Source: Myxococcota bacterium | Lineage (GTDB): Bacteria > Myxococcota_A > UBA796 > CAJQPC01 | Reading direction: 5' to 3' | Assembly: GCA_036229005.1 (NCBI GenBank) | Contig: JAZAMN010000027.1 | Span: 1 to 38,286 of the forward strand | DNA length: 38,286 bases | In this document: in pieces, positions 26,393 to 38,286 of the stretch | Layout: the number at the start of each line of letters is the position of its first letter | Numbering within the stretch: the first letter of the stretch is position 1 | Made by a program: the position numbers and the translations under genes | Notes under the pieces: model-generated | What the model saw: the letters and a program-made list of their open reading frames with translations, nothing else | Databases searched by the model: none | What the model was told of the DNA's origin: nothing

Positions 26393-27679
26393 GTGAGCGA
26401 GGCTGTTCAAGCACTGAGGCTGTCGGGGTTCAGCATCGAGAACCTGGGGGGGATCGAGCACCTGGAGGTTGAGGGGCTGCCCGAGGCGAAGGGCGGGCAG
26501 TGGATCGTGGTGCTCGGGGACAATGGGTCGGGCAAGAGCTCGTTGTTGAGGGGCTTGGCGCTTTCCGCTTTGAGTTGGAACGGCGGCACGCCAGTTGGTC
26601 TTCTGGAGACCACGCCGCTCGCGCTGCGGCGGGAGGGCTCCCTGGCCAGGCTGTCGTTTGGGATTCGGTGGGACGTCTCCTCCCTCAAGGCCCAGAGAGA
26701 CGGCGTCTGGTCGACGGGTCCGAACGCTTCCCGGTCGGGATCCACTCATTTTCTGGCTGCGTATGGTGTGGCTCGGGGCGGAGCGCTGGCCGGACCAGAT
26801 CGAGCTGTAGACTTGGAGAATCCGTACGGGGCCGTCGCGACGCTGTTCGCACTTCCCAGTCAGCTTGTCCACGCCGAGACCTGGCTCGTTCAGGTGCGCT
26901 TTGAGGCCTTGGAGTCAGGGGACCCCCAGTTCTTCGACGCGGTGTCCTCGACGCTGCTGTCCCTGCTGCCAGGAGCCTCGAAGCTGGAGGTCAAGCGCGA
27001 GGGGGTGTGGATTGAGGGTGAGTTCGGTCGGGTCCCCCTCTCCGGCTTGAGTGACGGCTACATCACCACCCTGGGGTGGACCCTGGACCTGCTGGCCCGC
27101 TGGGAGAAGTGGGCACGAAGCAACGGTGTTCCGCTTGGCCAGAACTTCGCGAAGGAGATGACAGGACTCGTTCTGGTCGATGAACTGGACCTGCACCTGC
27201 ACCCTCGCTGGCAGCGAAACGTCATCGGCTCTCTGCGGAGAGCCTTCCCCAACCTGAGCTTTGTCTGCACCACCCACAACCCCCTCACGCTCCTGGGGGC
27301 GAAGCCGGGGGAGGTGTTTACCCTGGAGCAGGAGGAGGGTGGGCACGTCCTGATCCAGCGGGATCTGCCCAAGGGGATCCGGGCGGATCAGGTGCTGACT
27401 GGGCCTTGGTTTGGGCTGTCGTCAACACTGGACCGGGGGACGCTGCAGATGCTCGGGCGACATCGCAACCTCCTTGCGGATGGTGTTGCGCGCGATGACC
27501 CGGACCGTGTCGCGTTGGAGGGGCGAATCCGGAGCCGACTGGGCAGCTACGCCGAACTCAGTGAAGAGAGGCTTGCCCTGTCTGCTGTCCAACAGCTCTT
27601 CGAAGATGAGCCTGAGCTCAGCGCAGCAGACCGCATGCGAGCGCTTGATCTCCTCAACGAGCGCGTGGGGGAAGGGTGA
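26393..27679 (+). CDS. ABC/AAA ATPase, Septu PtuA-like
   Basis: GDNGSGKS Walker A, AYG..R, LSDGY signature, VLVDELDLHLHPRWQ, TTHNP. Confidence 0.85.
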   Translation: MSEAVQALRLSGFSIENLGGIEHLEVEGLPEAKGGQWIVVLGDNGSGKSSLLRGLALSALSWNGGTPVGLLETTPLALRREGSLARLSFGIRWDVSSLKAQRDGVWSTGPNASRSGSTHFLAAYGVARGGALAGPDRAVDLENPYGAVATLFALPSQLVHAETWLVQVRFEALESGDPQFFDAVSSTLLSLLPGASKLEVKREGVWIEGEFGRVPLSGLSDGYITTLGWTLDLLARWEKWARSNGVPLGQNFAKEMTGLVLVDELDLHLHPRWQRNVIGSLRRAFPNLSFVCTTHNPLTLLGAKPGEVFTLEQEEGGHVLIQRDLPKGIRADQVLTGPWFGLSSTLDRGTLQMLGRHRNLLADGVARDDPDRVALEGRIRSRLGSYAELSEERLALSAVQQLFEDEPELSAADRMRALDLLNERVGEG

Positions 27680-28542
27680 TTCGCCTCGGGGGGCGGCCGC
27701 CGGAGCCTGCGCAGTTCGCAGCGAAGGTTCGCCCGTTTGAGACCGCCGTTCAGGCTGCAGCGGCCTCTGGAGATTGGCCGGGATTCAGCGCGGTGTTCAA
27801 GAGCAAGCACAAGGCGAAGCCCAAGAACCTCGGCGGGGCCGTCTGGCAGGACTTCAAGGACCGATTCTATCGGGTCCAGCATGGACGCTGTGGATACTGT
27901 GACGCAGTCATCACTGGCTCGGACGGAGACGTCGAACACTACCGGCCCAAGGCCAAGGTACAGGAGCTGGGAAAGAAGGGGACCGAGTCCAGGGACGGTG
28001 TGAAGGTCTCTGGGCAAACGGCCAAGAAGAGCAGGAGCTTTGTTCCCGGCTACTGGTGGCTTGCGTTGACCTGGACGAACTACTTGTTCTCTTGCGAGGT
28101 CTGCAATCGCAAGTGGAAGAAGAACTTCTTCCACATCCAGGGGGGCCGAGCTGGGGCCCCTGCTCAGGGCTCAGAGGCTATCGAGACACCGCTTCTGATG
28201 ACCTGCTTCGATGGGCCTGACCCGATCCACCACCTTCGCTTCGACGACCTTGGACAGGTGGAGCCGCTGAACGGGAGTTCCTATGGTCGCCAGACGATCG
28301 ACCTCGTTGGACTGGATCGGGAGAGCCTTCGGGCAGCGAGGCAGGAGAAGGCTTTCAAAGCCCACCAGCTCTCGAAGCGTGTTCTCAATCGAGCCTTGTT
28401 GGAGGACTGGTCGGGCGTGAAAGAGTCCGCTCAGGATTTGTTGGACCTCGGTGAGGAGACCACGACCTTTGCCGGAGTGGTCCGCTGCATCGCTGCTGGA
28501 CACGGTCTGGCTTGGAACAAGGTGACCTTGCTGGCCCGCTAA
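27676..28542 (+). CDS. HNH endonuclease, PtuB/retron-effector-like
   Basis: GTGA overlap with the ATPase; RCGYCD, VEHYRPK, YWWLALTWTNYLFSCEVCN..K.N.F. Confidence 0.85.
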   Translation: MIRLGGRPPEPAQFAAKVRPFETAVQAAAASGDWPGFSAVFKSKHKAKPKNLGGAVWQDFKDRFYRVQHGRCGYCDAVITGSDGDVEHYRPKAKVQELGKKGTESRDGVKVSGQTAKKSRSFVPGYWWLALTWTNYLFSCEVCNRKWKKNFFHIQGGRAGAPAQGSEAIETPLLMTCFDGPDPIHHLRFDDLGQVEPLNGSSYGRQTIDLVGLDRESLRAARQEKAFKAHQLSKRVLNRALLEDWSGVKESAQDLLDLGEETTTFAGVVRCIAAGHGLAWNKVTLLAR

Positions 28543-31872: not shown

Positions 31873-33179
31873 TTCCGCGTCTGACCCTGGCCCTGGCGCC
31901 GCGTCGGGAGCCCGACTGGCTCTCGCTCGCCGTCGCGCTGCTGGCCGCCTGCACTCTGGGCGCCCTGGCGTGGTCCCACCCCGGGCTGCGCTTCGTGGAC
32001 TTTGCGTTCTTCTCGGAGCGCGCCCTGTCTCTGCGCAGCGGCTACCACTGGATCCACCCGCTCTACCCCGTCGGCTATCCCTGGCTGCTCTCCGGGCTCC
32101 AGCTCCTCACCGGCGACGTGCTCGTGGCCGGCCGAATCATCTCCGTGGCCCTGGGCACCCTGGGCATCTGGGGCCTCTCCCGCTGGCTCTCCCCCTGGGC
32201 GGGCCTCGTCGTGCTCGGCCACCTGCAGTTCCTGCTCTGGGGCAGCACCGAGGGCACCGACATGGCCGCCACCGCCCTGGCCCTGACCGCCCTCTGGGCC
32301 GCCGACTCGGAGTGCCCTGTCGCCGCCGGACTGCTCGCCGGGGCCGCCTGCATGACCCGCTACACCGGCATAGCCGTCGTGCCCGTGGTGCTCTGGGTGG
32401 GCGGCTGGCGGGCCGCCCTCAGCTTCGGCGCCACCCTGCTCCCCCACATCAGCGTCGCGCTCTACCTGGACCTGCCCGTCCTGCCCGACCAGTCCCTGAA
32501 CATGAACATCGGCCAGGGCCGCGGCCCCCAGCTTGGCTTCTGGGCCGGCCTCTTGGCGGGGGCCCGCCGCGCCAGCGACCACCTGCTCCCTGCCTGGCCC
32601 TCGCTGCTGGGTGGCCTGGGCCTGCTGGTGGGCATCGCCCGCCGGGATCGGCGCGCCTGGATGCTCGCCGCCTACGCCGCCCTCCACTTCGCCGGCCTGT
32701 CCCTCGCCTTCGCCAACCCGCGCCTGGCCCTGCCCACGCTCCTGTCCCTGTGCGCCGGTGTGTACTGGCTGCTGCCGCGCCGCTGGCTCCTCCTCCTCCT
32801 CCCCTTCGTCCTGAGCTGGTCCCTGCCCAGCGCCTTTGGGCCCACGCCCGCCCAGTTCGAGCAGCTCGCCGAGATGCAGCGGGTCACCGAGGGGATGGAG
32901 GGGCGCTTTGCCGCCAGCACACCCTGGTTCACCGTCCGGCGTGGGGGGTGGATCTACAGCACTGTCCAGATCTGGGAGGCCGGCGAGGCCGGGCTGCTCA
33001 CCGAGGACAAGCTGGCCGACTGGATGGCCCGCGAGGGCATCCGCTACGTGGTGCTCGACAGCCGGGCGCACCGGGCGAAGGGCCTGCAGGGGCTGCTGGC
33101 GGGGCGGGGTGGCGCGCGCTTTGAGCTGGCGGGGCGGGGCAGGGGCTTTGTGGTGATGGCGCTGAAGGAGGCGCGGTGA
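31869..33179 (+). CDS. GT-C fold (ArnT/PMT-like) membrane glycosyltransferase; start uncertain (CTG 31869 or GTG 31995)
   Basis: YPVGYP, GTD and TRYTG motifs; multiple TM segments; an in-frame TM helix lies upstream of the GTG. Confidence 0.68.
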   Translation: MIPRLTLALAPRREPDWLSLAVALLAACTLGALAWSHPGLRFVDFAFFSERALSLRSGYHWIHPLYPVGYPWLLSGLQLLTGDVLVAGRIISVALGTLGIWGLSRWLSPWAGLVVLGHLQFLLWGSTEGTDMAATALALTALWAADSECPVAAGLLAGAACMTRYTGIAVVPVVLWVGGWRAALSFGATLLPHISVALYLDLPVLPDQSLNMNIGQGRGPQLGFWAGLLAGARRASDHLLPAWPSLLGGLGLLVGIARRDRRAWMLAAYAALHFAGLSLAFANPRLALPTLLSLCAGVYWLLPRRWLLLLLPFVLSWSLPSAFGPTPAQFEQLAEMQRVTEGMEGRFAASTPWFTVRRGGWIYSTVQIWEAGEAGLLTEDKLADWMAREGIRYVVLDSRAHRAKGLQGLLAGRGGARFELAGRGRGFVVMALKEAR

Positions 33180-33192
33180 TGGACTCGGGCGC

Positions 33193-33490
33193 GGCTACGG
33201 GGTGTGAGTGAGCGGGACCCTGCGGCTACGGGGTGTGAGTGAGCGGGACCCCGAGGCTACGGGGTCCGACTGAGCGGTCTTCTGAGGCTACCGCCCACCA
33301 GTGAGCGATCGGGCCACCGTTTTGGCGTGTTCGAGGGCGAATTGGGCCAGAAATGGCCGATTTGAGGCTGAATCGGGGGCTGCACGGGCTGGATCGGTGG
33401 CCGGATCGCTCACTGAGTATGCCTGGCCTCAGCGAGTCGCTCATTCAGGGGGCGTAGCCACCCCTGGGCGCTCATCCAGGGTGCGTAGCC
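33193..33490. repeat. Bipartite REP/REPIN-like array, GTAG variant: 4 direct plus 3 inverted 31-bp units
   Basis: GGCTAC-N10-TGAGCG at 33193, 33224, 33255, 33286; inverted CGCTCA-N10-(CTG/GTA)GCC at 33407, 33438, 33469; 21-bp inner inverted repeat 33299-33319/33395-33415 with one mismatch. Confidence 0.92.
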
Positions 33491-34149
33491 CCACCCTGGA
33501 GCCCTTCCTGGAGACTGGCCGCCCGCCATCCCGCCCCCAGCTCCTCCCGAGACAGCCCCGGCAGCCGCGGGAAGCTCCACACCGGCACATCCAGCAGCGC
33601 CCGCAGGTCCGCCAGGTTGGAGGCCCGGGAGAGGTCCTGGCCGGCGTCGGCCAGCAGGTCGTTGAGCACCACGCCGGCCACCTGCAGGCCACTGGCACGC
33701 ACCGCGTCGACGGTCAGCAGGGTGTGGTTCAGGACCCCCAGCCGGTTCGCGGCCACGACCAGAACCGGGAAGTCCAGGGCCTGGGCCAGCTCAGGCACGC
33801 CAAAGTCCCAGGAGATGGGCACGCGCCAGCCACCGACGCCCTCCACCAGCAGCTTGGGGGCCGAGCGGGCCTGGATCCACGCCAGGATCTGCTGGAGGTC
33901 GGCGTGCCTTCCGGTGTCCTCGCCGGCGCGGTGGGGGCTCACGGGGGGGACCCAGGAGATCGCGGTCTCGGCGATATGCCCACAAGCTCTGGCCAGCAGC
34001 TCAGCGTCCTCTCCCGCCGTGCCAGGTGTGACCCCGCTCGCGATGGGCTTGAGGGCCCGGGCGCCGGTGGCGGCGGCGATGGAGGCGGTGACGACGGACT
34101 TGCCGACTTCGGTGTCGGTGCCGGTGATGAAGAGGCGGTCGGGGAGCAT
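33472..34149 (-). CDS. bioD: Dethiobiotin synthase
   Basis: FITGTDTEVGKS, LKPIASG, SPH, VEGVGG, LGVLNHTLLT, GVVLN. Confidence 0.93.
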   Translation of the reverse strand: MLPDRLFITGTDTEVGKSVVTASIAAATGARALKPIASGVTPGTAGEDAELLARACGHIAETAISWVPPVSPHRAGEDTGRHADLQQILAWIQARSAPKLLVEGVGGWRVPISWDFGVPELAQALDFPVLVVAANRLGVLNHTLLTVDAVRASGLQVAGVVLNDLLADAGQDLSRASNLADLRALLDVPVWSFPRLPGLSREELGAGWRAASLQEGLQGGATHPG

Positions 34150-34179
34150 GGGGGAGGGCTATCCGGTTAGTCCGAGGGC

Positions 34180-35499
34180 ATGGCAGACATCCTCATCCTG
34201 GGCGCCGGCGTCTCCGGTCTCGCGGTCGCCGAGTGGCTGCGCGACGACCACAACGTGCAGGTCCTGGAGGCGGGGCCCGGGCCCGGGGGAAAGGTCAGCT
34301 CGGAGGTGGTGGATGGCTTCACCTTCGACCGGGCGGCCAACGGCTGGCTGGACAACGAGCCGGCGATGGAGCGCCTGCTGCTGCGGGCGGGGCTGTCCCA
34401 GCAGGTGGTGAAGGCGACCCCGGGGGGCACCCGCTACGTGGTGGTGAACGGGAAGATGACGGCGCTCCCGGCCAAGCCGCCGCAGATGCTGACCTCTCCG
34501 GTGCTGACGCTGGGGGGCAAGCTGCGCATGGCCTGGGACCTGTTCGCGCCGGGCTTTGACGGCGAGGAGTCGGTCGCGCAGTTCGTCCGACGGCGGCTGG
34601 GGCAGGAGGCCCTGGAGCGCCTGGTGCAGCCCATGGTGACGGGCATCTACGCGGGCGACGTGGAGAACATGAGCGTGCAGGGGGCCTTCCCCAAGCTCAA
34701 GGAGCTGGAGCGCCAGCACGGCTCGCTGCTGCGGGGGGCCATCGCGCGGCGGAGCGCGGAGACGGGGCCCTCGGGCACGCTGACCAGCCTGGTGGGCGGC
34801 GCGGGGGTGCTGACCCGGACCCTGGCGGAGCGGGCGACGGTGCACTGCAACCAGGCGGCGACGGGCCTGGAGCGGGTGGGGGAGCGCTGGCGGGTGCAGA
34901 CGGCGCAAGGCAGCCTGGACGCCGACGCGGTGGTGGTCGGGACGCCGGCCTATGTGGCCGCGGAGCTCACGGCGGGCCTGGACACCGAGCTGTCCCAGGC
35001 GCTGGGCGCCATCCCGTACGCGCCGGTGGCGGTGGTGGGCCAAGGATTGCCTCGCTCGGGCTGGGATCCGCCGGAGGGGTTCGGGGTCCTGGTGCCGGAG
35101 GTTGAGCGCATGGGCATCCTGGGCACCCTGTTCACCTCGTCCATCTTCCCCTCGCGCGCCCCGGAGGACGGGGTGACGCTGCGCACTCTGCTGGGCGGCG
35201 CTCTGCATCCGCGTCAGGCGCTGCTCGAGCCCGAGGCGCTGGTGGAGATCGCGCGGCGGGAGGTCGGGAAGCTGGTTGGAGAGCTGCCGCCCGCTCGGGT
35301 GATCCGGGTCTACCGCCATGAGCGGGCGATCCCTCAGTACACCCTGGGACACCCCGGCCGCGTCGAGGTCATCGAGGCCGCCGAGCAGCGGCACCGGGGC
35401 CTGGTGTTCGTGGGCAACCACCTGCGGGGGATCGGGGTGAAGGACTGCGCCCGGACCTCGGAGGGGGCGGTGCGCAAGCTGCAGGAAGCGCTGGACTGA
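34180..35499 (+). CDS. hemG: Protoporphyrinogen/coproporphyrinogen oxidase (HemY-type flavoprotein)
   Basis: GAGVSGL FAD motif, ESVAQFVRRRLG, GIYAGD, GFGVL, IPQY, GIGVKDC. Confidence 0.9.
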   Translation: MADILILGAGVSGLAVAEWLRDDHNVQVLEAGPGPGGKVSSEVVDGFTFDRAANGWLDNEPAMERLLLRAGLSQQVVKATPGGTRYVVVNGKMTALPAKPPQMLTSPVLTLGGKLRMAWDLFAPGFDGEESVAQFVRRRLGQEALERLVQPMVTGIYAGDVENMSVQGAFPKLKELERQHGSLLRGAIARRSAETGPSGTLTSLVGGAGVLTRTLAERATVHCNQAATGLERVGERWRVQTAQGSLDADAVVVGTPAYVAAELTAGLDTELSQALGAIPYAPVAVVGQGLPRSGWDPPEGFGVLVPEVERMGILGTLFTSSIFPSRAPEDGVTLRTLLGGALHPRQALLEPEALVEIARREVGKLVGELPPARVIRVYRHERAIPQYTLGHPGRVEVIEAAEQRHRGLVFVGNHLRGIGVKDCARTSEGAVRKLQEALD

Positions 35500-35628
35500 A
35501 AGGCGCTTTCTCTTGCGTCCCCGCGGGGGCCTGGGAAAGGTTGCAAGGGCTTGACTCCGCAACGGGGCCCATCGGGGCACCCAATGATGCGGGCTGCACC
35601 GAGCCCCCCACCCCAGACTGGAGCCCCC

Positions 35629-37215
35629 GTGCTGCTGATCCTCTCGCTGCTGGCCTGCACCAAGGACACCCCGGAGACCCCGGACGACACCGGGACGGAG
35701 CGCCTGACCTGCGCAGACGGGCTCTACCAGCGGGAGTTCGTGGCCCCTGCGGAGCCCGGGATGCTGCGCCGGGACGCGGCCGGGGACTTCACGCTGCCGC
35801 TGGCGAATGGGGAGAGCTGGACCTTCTCGGAGCACTTTGACGGCTGCGACGTGATGGTGTGGGTCCCGCACAGCCTCAAGAACTTCAGCGGGGACCGGAT
35901 CTGGGAGGACGGGGTGGCCGACCTGGTCGACCAGTCGCCGGCCAACGCCATCTACGTGTTCTACGTGGAGGGGATCTACGCGGACTCCGCGGTCGAGCAC
36001 TACGAGGCGCAGCAGGCCCGCGTGGACGAGTACCTGGCCACCCTGGACGAGGAGCAGGCCGCCTGGTGGTCCGAGCGCCTGCTGGTGGTCGCGGGCACCA
36101 CGCGGGAGGGCTGGACAGGGCCGGCCGCGGTGGCCACGGGGACCTTCGACAACGGCATGGCGATCGACCGGCTGCAGCAGCTTCGCGGGGTGGGCAGCTA
36201 CGCGGATGTGCGGGATCTGAACAACTCGGTGGGCTGGTACGACTCCCGCCTGGAGCGCGCCCGCCACGAGGTCGAGTACCTGAACTGGGAGGCCCAGCGC
36301 GCCCAGGAGATGGAGGAGACCGAGAAGTTCGCGACCCGCGTGGACTTCTGGCAGGGCGACATCATCGAGGAGTACGAGGACATCACCGTCACGCTGCCCT
36401 CGGCCGATGAGATGTCCGGCTTCGACACCCTGGAGATCGAGGTGCTCATGGAGTGCCCCGACAGCGAGGCCATCGAGCAGAACAACTGCGGCGCCTGGGA
36501 CTACCTGGCGTACATGTGGGTCCTGGCGCCCGACGGCGAGACCTGGTGGGAGGTCTCCCGCTTCATCACCACCTACCACCGCGAGTCGCACTGGGTGGTC
36601 GACGGCACGCACGCGCTGCCCTGGCTGGCCGAGGGCGGTGAGCACACCTTCCGCTTCCAGTGGGCGCCGAGCTGGAACACCCAGCCCACGGCGGTCACCG
36701 CCAGCCTGCGCCTGAGCAACCAGGGCAAGGGCTACAAGCCGGTCAAGACCACCCCCCTGTTCACCGGCGGGGACTTCACCGCTGGCTACACCGACGACTA
36801 CGAGCCCATCGAGGTCGAGGTCTCAAGCGACGCCGCCCACGTCGAGCTGGTCACCATCCTGACCGGCCACGGCATGGAGACCAACAACTGCGCGGAGTTC
36901 TGTGACCACCGCCACTTCTGGGACGTGGACGGAGCCGTCAGCGAGCAGAGCTTCACCGACGTGGTCGGCGACCAGGAGGGCTGCTCGGGCCGCGCCAGCG
37001 AGGGCGTCGTCCCCAACCAGGGCGGCACCTGGTGGTTCGGTCGCGGCGGCTGGTGCCCCGGCGAGAAGGTCGAGCCCTTTGTGGTCGACGCCACCGAGGC
37101 CGCCGCCGATGGCAGCGTGACCGTCGACTACTACTCCACCTACAAGGTGCAGCCCTCCATCCCCTCGGGCAGCGGCAACATCGAGCTGCGGAGCTGGCTG
37201 GTCGAGTATCAGTAG
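35629..37215 (+). CDS. Peptide-N-glycosidase F-like lipoprotein with N-terminal redoxin-like segment
   Basis: GTG after GGAG; lipobox LLAC; CGAWDY, RFITTY, TGHG, CAEFC, GTWWFGRGGWCPG. Confidence 0.82.
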   Translation: MLLILSLLACTKDTPETPDDTGTERLTCADGLYQREFVAPAEPGMLRRDAAGDFTLPLANGESWTFSEHFDGCDVMVWVPHSLKNFSGDRIWEDGVADLVDQSPANAIYVFYVEGIYADSAVEHYEAQQARVDEYLATLDEEQAAWWSERLLVVAGTTREGWTGPAAVATGTFDNGMAIDRLQQLRGVGSYADVRDLNNSVGWYDSRLERARHEVEYLNWEAQRAQEMEETEKFATRVDFWQGDIIEEYEDITVTLPSADEMSGFDTLEIEVLMECPDSEAIEQNNCGAWDYLAYMWVLAPDGETWWEVSRFITTYHRESHWVVDGTHALPWLAEGGEHTFRFQWAPSWNTQPTAVTASLRLSNQGKGYKPVKTTPLFTGGDFTAGYTDDYEPIEVEVSSDAAHVELVTILTGHGMETNNCAEFCDHRHFWDVDGAVSEQSFTDVVGDQEGCSGRASEGVVPNQGGTWWFGRGGWCPGEKVEPFVVDATEAAADGSVTVDYYSTYKVQPSIPSGSGNIELRSWLVEYQ

Positions 37216-37985
37216 CGGGTCCAGAAGCCTCTACCTGCCGGGATCCCCGGAAAGCGGGGGTCGCCCAGGAGCAGGGCGGTGCGCTGGACGTGCTCGTCTG
37301 GCGGACCTTGGCGGCGCAGCGTGGCCGGGCTCGTGTCCAGCATGTCGGCCAGCTCGCCGGGTTTGGCGCAGATCAGGGCCTTCGCTGAGCGGAGCAGCAG
37401 ACTGCGGGCCGGTCCGCGTTGATCGAGCTGGTGGATGGGCATCCGGCAGTAGCCGGAGACGGCCGCCTGGAGCTCGTGCAGGGTAGGGTCGCGGCTCATC
37501 CCGCCGGGCAACTGGCTGCCCTCCAGGGAGACCGACTCGTCTTGGGAGGTGTAGGCGTGCAGCCGGTGGGGCTCGCGGTGCTTGGGGCGCACCGGGCTGT
37601 GGGCGAACCCCACCGCATCCCGGTAGGTGGACCAGGGCCAGGCCAGCGGGTCGTCCACCATCCCGGCGCGGCAGGGGTTCAGGTGGATGTAGCGGGTCTC
37701 GCGCCGCCGCTTCTGGTCATCGGCCGCCCAGCGCGACTCGGGCAGCTTCTCGATGCGTCTACCCTTGAGGCCCTGGGCGTGGTTCAGGCTGCGGCTGTGC
37801 GCCCGCAGGGCCTGGGCCAGCTCCAGGCGCAGATCCTTGTGGTGCTGCAGGTGCACGTGGTTGGGCATCAGACAGAGGGCCTCCATCCCCGCGCACGCGC
37901 GGGTGATGCGCTGCCACAGCGCGGCCGCGTCCTCCCAGGTGGAGATGAGGAGCCCGGCGTCAGCGCGGGCGACGATGTGGTACAT
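37209..37985 (-). CDS. REP-associated tyrosine transposase (RAYT/TnpA-REP, Y1 HUH) with C-terminal helical extension
   Basis: ATG at 37985 after GGGAG; MYHIVAR, LCLMPNHVHL (HUH), YIHLNPCRAGMV...WPWSTY. Confidence 0.85.
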   Translation of the reverse strand: MYHIVARADAGLLISTWEDAAALWQRITRACAGMEALCLMPNHVHLQHHKDLRLELAQALRAHSRSLNHAQGLKGRRIEKLPESRWAADDQKRRRETRYIHLNPCRAGMVDDPLAWPWSTYRDAVGFAHSPVRPKHREPHRLHAYTSQDESVSLEGSQLPGGMSRDPTLHELQAAVSGYCRMPIHQLDQRGPARSLLLRSAKALICAKPGELADMLDTSPATLRRQGPPDEHVQRTALLLGDPRFPGIPAGRGFWTRY

Positions 37986-38063
37986 GCTCGCTCCCTTTTC
38001 GGGGTGGGGGAGCAAAGCGCGTGCCGGCGCCAAGTGGCTGAAAGCACGTGTGGTGTCGGCTGG

Positions 38064-38106
38064 GGTGTCGGGTCTTCGACACCTGGACGGGCCCTTTCGA
38101 CGGGCC
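38064..38106. other. Two short hairpins upstream of the RAYT gene
   Basis: GGTGTCG-GGTCTT-CGACACC (38064-38083) and GGCCC-TTTCGAC-GGGCC (38090-38106). Confidence 0.45.
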
Positions 38107-38155
38107 AGCGGTGGTGAATGAGCGCGACCCGGTGGCTACGGCCTCCGAGTGAGCA
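38103..38155. repeat. Two units of the 31-bp GTAG-variant repeat, the second interrupted by IS110
   Basis: GGCCAG-N10-TGAGCG-N9-GGCTAC-N10-TGAGCA, same geometry as the 33193 array. Confidence 0.85.
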
Positions 38156-38286
38156 ACCGTCTTCTTCAAGTTGTTTGAACGGCCGGCGCAGTCGGCTGCG
38201 CAAGGTAGCTCCTCATCGTGCTGTTGAGGTGGATGAGGAGCTTCCGCATGCAGGCCACGATCGCGACCTTGGCTGGCTTTCCCTTG
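38152..38286 (-). mobile_element. Right end of an IS110-family insertion sequence (remainder outside window)
   Basis: Transposase 3' end followed by TTGAAGAAGACGGTTGCT, with the terminal CT shared with the repeat box. Confidence 0.78.
38166..38286 (-). CDS. IS110-family transposase, C-terminal fragment (absent from ORF track)
   Basis: Hand translation KGKPAKVAIVACMRKLLIHLNSTMRSYLAQPTAPAVQTT-stop matches the typical IS110 tail GKPxKVAIVAxMRKLL. Confidence 0.85.
   Translation of the reverse strand, partial: KGKPAKVAIVACMRKLLIHLNSTMRSYLAQPTAPAVQTT

Follow-up and report, generated by a model that had tools for sequence, protein, structure and literature searches.

Helically phased mirror-image repeats paired with Y1 HUH endonucleases in a Myxococcota genome: putative non-autonomous mobile elements

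The 38,286-nucleotide stretch of DNA analysed here (the window) is the entire contig JAZAMN010000027.1 (C27 in our numbering) of a Myxococcota bacterium (assembly GCA_036229005.1; genome 6.4 Mb, 70% GC), and the sequencing runs that contain window DNA are marine metagenomes. It holds an intergenic element made of 31-bp units, each with two short conserved boxes, and a gene for a Y1 HUH endonuclease related to the REP-associated tyrosine transposases (RAYTs; REP, repetitive extragenic palindrome). The account we favour, with moderate confidence, is that of a gene-less mirror-image element whose phased boxes would be bound as duplex DNA and which would be copied into intergenic sites by its cognate HUH enzyme, in a manner tied to the expression of DNA-uptake genes. 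The parts of the window element, as read from the sequence, are:

33193..33307, plus strand: left arm of four 31-bp units, each consisting of GGCTAC (box A) and ARTGAGCG (box B), with 8 variable bases between the boxes and 9 after box B
33308..33406, no strand: core of variable sequence, in which A/T tracts and GGGCCC-like tracts alternate with a period of 10.4 bp
33407..33490, minus strand: right arm of three inverted units

The plus-strand units start at 33193, 33224, 33255 and 33286, the minus-strand units occupy 33407-33428, 33438-33459 and 33469-33490, and the inner box B anchors of the two arms lie 114 bp apart, or 11 turns. An earlier note on this DNA had described four units facing three inverted units at 33193-33490 with a 31-bp period, which we confirmed, with box A of the innermost inverted unit changed to GGCCAG. 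Exact matches to GGCTAC-N10-TGAGCG numbered 6 in the window against 0.01 expected (none of 100 shuffles reached 6). The genome-wide scan proposed in the note likewise showed enrichment, with 223 exact matches at spacer 10 compared to 0-11 at each other spacer from 5 to 15. Nearly all of the 223 fall within ~45 intergenic elements, each with two inverted arms of 31-bp units around a core. When up to two mismatches were tolerated near exact matches, the family comprised 47 multi-unit clusters, 45 of them arranged as plus arm, core and minus arm (one of these being a family-2 element picked up by the loose pattern), and 187 of 198 same-strand neighbour distances equalled 31.

The HUH gene of the window has four paralogs in the genome, 49-69% identical, and each of the five genes adjoins a different 31-bp two-box family. 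The other four families contain 13, 31, 5 and 20 clusters, with inverted arms in 67 of 69, and the whole genome holds ~110 elements in five families, all with the two-armed mirror-image build. A count of 14-mers mainly returned repeats in coding sequence. In the assembled genome an insertion interrupts the element of the window gene and so hides the link between the two:

38103..38155, plus strand: two units of the window gene's own element (38103-38124 and 38134-38155), adjoining the start side of the HUH gene
38155..38286, minus strand: end of a presumed IS110-type insertion sequence (transposase C-terminus KPAKVAIVACMRKLL), inserted in box B

These two units by the RAYT gene had been seen correctly in the earlier note, though not their place in a complete element cut by the insertion. 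In sequencing runs X2 and X3, from two other strains, the insertion is missing from this site, and one contig runs from window 37842-38154 into the end of contig C22 without it; the intact element upstream of the gene consists of three units facing three inverted ones across an inner distance of 104 bp. The IS110-type element, seen in the window and on contigs C15, C22, C29, C48, C50, C58 and C71, inserts in box B of the window family. One of its ends follows GAGTGAGC at 5 places, 2 of them clearly within units, its other end follows cut elements at 4 contig ends, and GCT is common to the junctions.

The pairing of gene and repeat extends to other genomes. Among 226 loci with a profile match (209 once duplicates were dropped), a detector that looked for two direct and two inverted copies in 30-33-bp paired arms was positive beside 63 of 75 close homologs, 6 of 51 middling ones and 1 of 78 distant ones, compared to 4 of 200 random genes of the source genome. 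The boxes varied from homolog to homolog, and neighbouring homologs had different box codes. The close homologs have their own versions of the architecture, and the window family's own motif was at background (2-7) in all five related genomes searched. Complete two-armed elements stood on one side of the gene, and on both sides for the paralog on contig C24. Profile matches were present in 17 of 41 genomes searched (1-19 matches each) and lacking in 24, and the hosts of close homologs include Myxococcota, Deltaproteobacteria and Acidobacteria. The system is widespread in a clade of mostly uncultured bacteria. In a more distant clade of the same protein family, units at a 50-52-bp period (~five turns), each palindromic, were observed at 8 of 51 loci (L041, L042, L051, L053, L126, L223, L226, L228).

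We examined the window protein and its likely contacts with the boxes:

37209..37985, minus strand: gene for a 258-aa Y1 HUH endonuclease with H43, H45, Y99-x-x-x-NP and a C-terminal helix-turn-helix resembling DnaA domain IV
37311..37328, minus strand: codons 220-225, encoding the predicted recognition helix; residues of this helix covary with bases of box B
37791..37793, minus strand: codon of Arg65, in a long helix of the HUH domain, which covaries with one box A base

H43, H45, Y99, N103 and P104 were invariant in 66 of 66 clade proteins. The structure model had a predicted local distance difference test score (pLDDT) of 97, and E. coli TnpA-REP (4ER8) was the top match by profile (E 1.2e-7) and by fold, bearing out the note's identification of a RAYT in the sense of a related Y1 HUH protein. 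The RAYT equivalog NF047646 scored 36.5 bits, below its curated cut-off of 80, and a Pfam scan of the protein returned no family. Trp94-Gln95 of E. coli TnpA-REP are replaced by Ile78-Glu79 in the window protein; among the 66 clade proteins, the first of these foot-region positions is Trp in 44 and the second is Gln in 7. In the model, C-terminal helices 209-215 and 220-224 form a helix-turn-helix that matched the DnaA DNA-binding domain 3pvp_B with probability 0.99 and a root-mean-square deviation of 2.0 over 63 columns, at a weak E of 0.46.

Covariation was assessed in 66 protein-repeat pairs (67 detected plus the window row, represented by its genome-wide consensus, minus two short proteins). 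The four top pairs by corrected mutual information linked box B with three residues on the second helix of the helix-turn-helix (225, 221 and 224) and box A with residue 65 in the HUH domain. Arg225 was paired with G in 43 of 45 cases and non-Arg with non-G in 16 of 16; Arg221 was paired with C in 12 of 13; Arg65 was paired with A or T in 47 of 48, and other residues with G or C in 14 of 14. In the major groove arginine usually contacts G, which a pairing with C also implies, the G then being on the opposite strand. The Arg65 contact is probably in the minor groove, since this residue accompanies either A or T. On a tree that left out the residue columns tested, residue and base traits changed 6-14 times, and among tree-independent pairs the base followed the residue in 3.5 of 4, 4.7 of 5, 5.1 of 7 and 3 of 3, with the cross-controls listed at ~0.

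The spacing of the arms pointed to the form in which the boxes are read. Distances between inner box B anchors were 31, 41, 52, 62, 73, 83, 93, 104, 114, 125, 135, 146, 156 and 188 bp, each give or take one. The best-fit period was 10.40 bp for the source genome (n=112, R 0.96) as well as for the elements next to homologs (n=63, R 0.86), and the score of the 33 distinct inner distances below 200 bp was reached by none of 2000 random sets. A skipped 31-bp unit keeps the phase, yet single-turn steps cannot arise that way. The cores carried an A/T signal of the same period, with an amplitude of 0.154 in 41 cores compared to a shuffled maximum of 0.020, and of 0.086 in relatives compared to 0.015. 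Cores share little sequence between copies (mean identity 0.46), yet their A/T tracts are phase-locked, and phased A/T tracts are the pattern of DNA that bends one way. Because the arm distances step by 10.4 bp and the core tracts are in phase, recognition of the repeats by the enzyme is very likely on duplex DNA, the firmest step of the proposed mechanism.

Two other readings were weighed against this. The earlier note had proposed classical REP-type recognition, a GTAG foot plus a small hairpin on single-stranded DNA, with variable segments pairing around CGCTCA. The protein is indeed related to TnpA-REP, the window family does contain GTAG, and from their sequence family 5 units could form a short stem. 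However, the 186 distinct units on the GTAGCC strand folded worse than controls, with a mean DNA folding energy of -2.78 kcal/mol compared to -3.02 (sd 0.08) when N9 and N10 were re-paired among units and -3.46 for base-shuffled units, and with 2.92 of 7 flanking pairs compared to 3.23. Pairing of the variable segments around CGCTCA was thus not confirmed, and the hairpin examples given in the note are chance cases in 70% GC DNA. Only 2 of 67 homolog-adjacent families other than that of the window carry GTAGC on the reverse strand of box A, which does not fit a general foot, and whole-turn spacing would be purposeless on a single strand. At variable columns, the left and right arms agreed less within an element than between elements in five of five families (0.34 and 0.41 in the window family), and the element is therefore not maintained as a fold-back. 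These folding and arm-agreement controls excluded both a hairpin per unit and a whole-element fold-back, and we regard REP-type recognition as very improbable. What stands of the note's RAYT-linked arrays is a dispersed family tied to the clade in which fixed boxes and spacing outweigh variable bases; what falls is a foot-plus-hairpin read on single-stranded DNA. In all five families the variable bases are strand-skewed across the whole element, tied weakly to local skew, which is why the arms mismatch each other at these positions; as a replication mark the skew is weak (rho 0.26, sign agreement 56%, n=112).

Two fixed boxes alternating with two variable segments might also suggest arrays that are transcribed and then cut to 31-nt guide-like RNAs, in the manner of tandem interspaced guide RNA (TIGR) or CRISPR arrays. 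Such arrays yield processed RNA guides with unique spacers. Here the variable segments consist of G/C runs of low complexity, and adjacent units often carry copies of each other's segments (68-83% in families 2-5). The inverted arms, the helical phase and the covariation of residues with bases indicate DNA, an Rfam search of the repeat gave no match, and this is the explanation to which we give least credence.

Comparison between copies suggested movement. Closely similar cores were present at unrelated loci, with 92% identity between elements on contigs C20 and C58 and 88% between the window element and that on C58, against a median of 47%. The likeness between close copies stops at the outer box A or within ~10 bp of it, and the flanks are unrelated. 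No target-site duplication, a feature of miniature inverted-repeat elements of DDE transposons, was detected (longest flanking direct repeat 3.96 compared to 3.78 in shuffled sequence, n=110); absence of target duplication is expected for HUH enzymes. Three related elements (G000 C16:69373, C54:61269 and C60:1589) share ~45 bp beyond the outer box on one side, and copying may therefore sometimes carry flanking DNA. Strain differences were found at the outer ends of arms, where 30 bases are missing at 33488 in X2 and ~22 are added at one C22 element. Change appears slow, because each of the four elements examined is retained in strains ~98% identical, which vary at the outer arm ends. Other strain-level insertions comprised 2643 letters in X2 at window 34158-34162 and, on C22 (L237 6438-6464), 935 letters in X2 and 544 in X3. 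Most junctions listed in the strain comparisons had short sides and arose from repeats, and these were set aside. Taken from sequence comparison, it is rather probable that the cognate enzyme copies the elements.

Upstream of the HUH gene we observed two promoter features:

38012..38025, minus strand: match to the sigma54-type -24/-12 consensus (motif)
38066..38081, minus strand: TGTCG-N6-CGACA palindrome, candidate activator site, common to comEC, comM, radC and a short ssb

Both parts of this rare pattern were present upstream of all five paralogs. Among close homologs, the sigma54-type match preceded 50 of 76 genes and the palindrome 48 of 76 (4 and 3 in in-gene controls), both parts preceding 36 of 76; among distant homologs the counts were 0 and 1 of 33. 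A promoter matrix trained on other genomes only, with the source genome excluded, was used to rank 3997 sigma54-like sites. The top 14, those with both parts, comprised the five paralogs, radC, comEC, a comM-type ATPase, the short ssb and five more, namely an integrase, a degenerate HUH-like gene and three others. The same pattern was seen at G000 C23:5807-6640, C57:36552-37361, C54:9650-11257, C59:5118-6614 and C11:253989-254777, where the genes that follow encode a tyrosine integrase, a degenerate protein with a weak HUH-like match, a protein of 536 aa and an FAD oxidoreductase. Directly behind the comM-type gene there is a second recA. comEC, comM and radC are named as competence genes in the sections cited of PMC12378983. 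Co-regulation of the enzyme with DNA-uptake genes, predicted from these motifs, is the weakest step and one to which we give slightly less than even chances.

The best reading is that these elements are non-autonomous and that their cognate enzyme copies them, possibly when the cell is competent. One monomer would bind each 31-bp unit, placing residues 220-225 of its helix-turn-helix into the major groove at box B and contacting box A, 15 bp further out, with Arg65 of the HUH domain, such that monomers would line one face of the duplex along both arms. The bendable core would curve and allow both arms to join in one complex. The enzyme would nick close to the outer box A or in it, at the point where copies cease to be homologous, and the cut strand would be rejoined at a new site with no target duplication, copies surviving mostly behind stop codons. 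Expression would be tied to DNA uptake, and single-stranded DNA from uptake or recombination may serve as donor or target, which is the most speculative step. A fuller claim, of a class of HUH transposases that recognise phased duplex DNA via a two-site protein-DNA code, form a looped complex, belong to a host sigma54 competence regulon and move on or into transforming single-stranded DNA, we put forward only tentatively.

Several points weigh against this mechanism. Binding, cleavage and movement are all predicted from sequence. No empty site was found, as four of four examined elements are present in two strains ~98% identical and the same-genus bioD loci (G001, G003) are not syntenic and revealed none. 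Most copies are old and diverged, as the median core identity indicates, which fits host-level upkeep too. HUH chemistry requires a single strand, and outside the boxes no conserved cut site was seen. The DnaA-domain match is weak by E-value, the residue-base pairs were chosen after a scan in which some unit registers may be off by one, and no single pair reached p<0.05 on the tree (3-7 pairs each). Of the other genes tested, five of five (dprA, comF, the other recA and two comEA-type genes) do not have the promoter pattern immediately upstream, and 3 of the top 14 sites precede genes with no evident link to uptake.

Two host-centred explanations compete with copying by a cognate enzyme. The system could be kept by the host to control recombination or transformation, the enzyme binding these phased boxes but mainly nicking the chromosome, or DNA taken in from kin, at such marks and so directing or restricting integration, with the spread of copies as a side effect. 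The promoter pattern common to comEC, comM, radC and ssb and kept in 36 of 76 close homologs, the stability of elements between strains and the precedent of SsnA and its NTS repeats (sections cited of PMC11893778) speak for such a role. However, up to 19 profile matches per genome resemble competing replicators, adjacent homologs have different box codes with turnover within the genus, and 24 of 41 genomes have no match, and we consider it unlikely. Alternatively, bendable phased elements might act as chromosome-topology sites that wrap, or nick and close, to relieve supercoiling. By crude open-reading-frame calls, 57 of 100 resolved elements lie between convergent genes compared to ~24% of neighbours and 0 of 112 lie within a gene, which together with the bendable core would suit such sites; but convergent sites are also the least harmful for insertions, housekeeping needs no five-plus private codes per genome, and the patchy presence would go unexplained. 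This second explanation is less likely still.

The window element itself lies between convergent genes, and the TGA of its outer box B (33472-33474) doubles as the stop codon of the bioD-like gene:

31995..33179, plus strand: left neighbour, a membrane protein with a weak NF046093 match, ending 13 bp before the element
33472..34149, minus strand: right neighbour, AAA_26 (dethiobiotin synthase-like), convergent

Elsewhere in the window, 26393-28542 encodes an ATPase and HNH pair resembling the PtuA/PtuB anti-phage genes, both below curated cut-offs. The gene at 35551-37215, which is convergent with the HUH gene, encodes a protein whose C-terminal domain is that of peptide-N-glycosidase F.

Binding of phased direct repeats along one side of the double helix is known from DnaA boxes and iterons and from the Rep sites of adeno-associated virus (AAV), where an HUH domain binds tandem duplex repeats and nicks nearby. 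Those are single origins, unlike the ~110 dispersed elements described here, whose protein has no ATPase or helicase part. Comparisons with published systems below refer to the sections cited. TnpA-REP proteins are described with a GTAG, a hairpin and cleavage at CT (PMC3479197, PMC8266576). As in REPtrons, REPs, REPINs and bacterial interspersed mosaic elements (BIMEs), a non-duplicating HUH gene stands beside one copy of a dispersed intergenic family, and there are several paralogs with their own families, inverted pairs, an IS110-type element that favours the repeats and slow change between strains (PMC3479197, PMC8266576, bioRxiv 10.1101/2021.07.10.451892). Unlike in those systems, the present units have no hairpin and no general GTAG foot, they are 31-bp tandem units with whole-turn spacing and a periodic core, and the protein has an extra DNA-binding domain. 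SsnA of Neisseria, which is paired with NTS repeats, is a GIY-YIG enzyme that cuts single-stranded DNA and whose link to transformation was tested (PMC11893778); the likeness is that a nuclease goes with a dispersed repeat of its own and is connected with natural transformation, here as predicted from promoters.

By motifs and domain the window protein fits TnpA-Y1 subclass 2.1, for which the cited sections report no REP-like sequences near the genes and leave the target of the helix-turn-helix open (Quentin 2018, PMC6006769). This subclass is RAYT group 1, with only modestly frequent flanking words (Bertels 2017, PMC5581495; bioRxiv 10.1101/2021.07.10.451892), and probably also corresponds to the TIRYTs or TIRtrons, whose genes are bracketed by terminal inverted repeats (TIRs), some of which form dispersed families (Di Nocera 2013, PMC3733652). 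Shared with subclass 2.1 and TIRYTs are the NHVH motif, Y-x-x-x-NP, a serine motif after the tyrosine, the DnaA-C-like helix-turn-helix, a similar length (median 238 aa) and the absence of REP hairpins, and some TIRs form dispersed dimers or clusters. Whereas TIRYTs have a TIR on each side, many of them GGGGWSAS, a whole two-armed element stands beside the gene here, and GGGGWSAS was found near none of the five HUH genes. Tandem helix-phased units with boxes that covary with the recognition helix also differ from subclass 2.1 as described. In the literature searched we found no phased 31-bp arrays or competence link, the figures and supplements of PMC3733652 and PMC6006769, outside this scope, being places that could hold a related family.

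The helix-turn-helix group is the largest RAYT group, with no REP-type target and an extra domain left unexplained in the cited papers, and the present system supplies a candidate target for it and predicts which residues read which bases. If correct, IS200-family enzymes can be guided by duplex geometry rather than hairpins, and natural transformation may set the time at which mobile repeats spread in bacteria that are mostly uncultured. Dozens of natural paralogs offer a readable specificity code, potentially useful for engineering enzymes that nick and join DNA. The system works like a REPIN-RAYT pair but falls outside both REPs and TIRtrons; its pairing is of a known, REPIN-RAYT-like kind, and what is new is a different likely mode of recognition together with a testable code.

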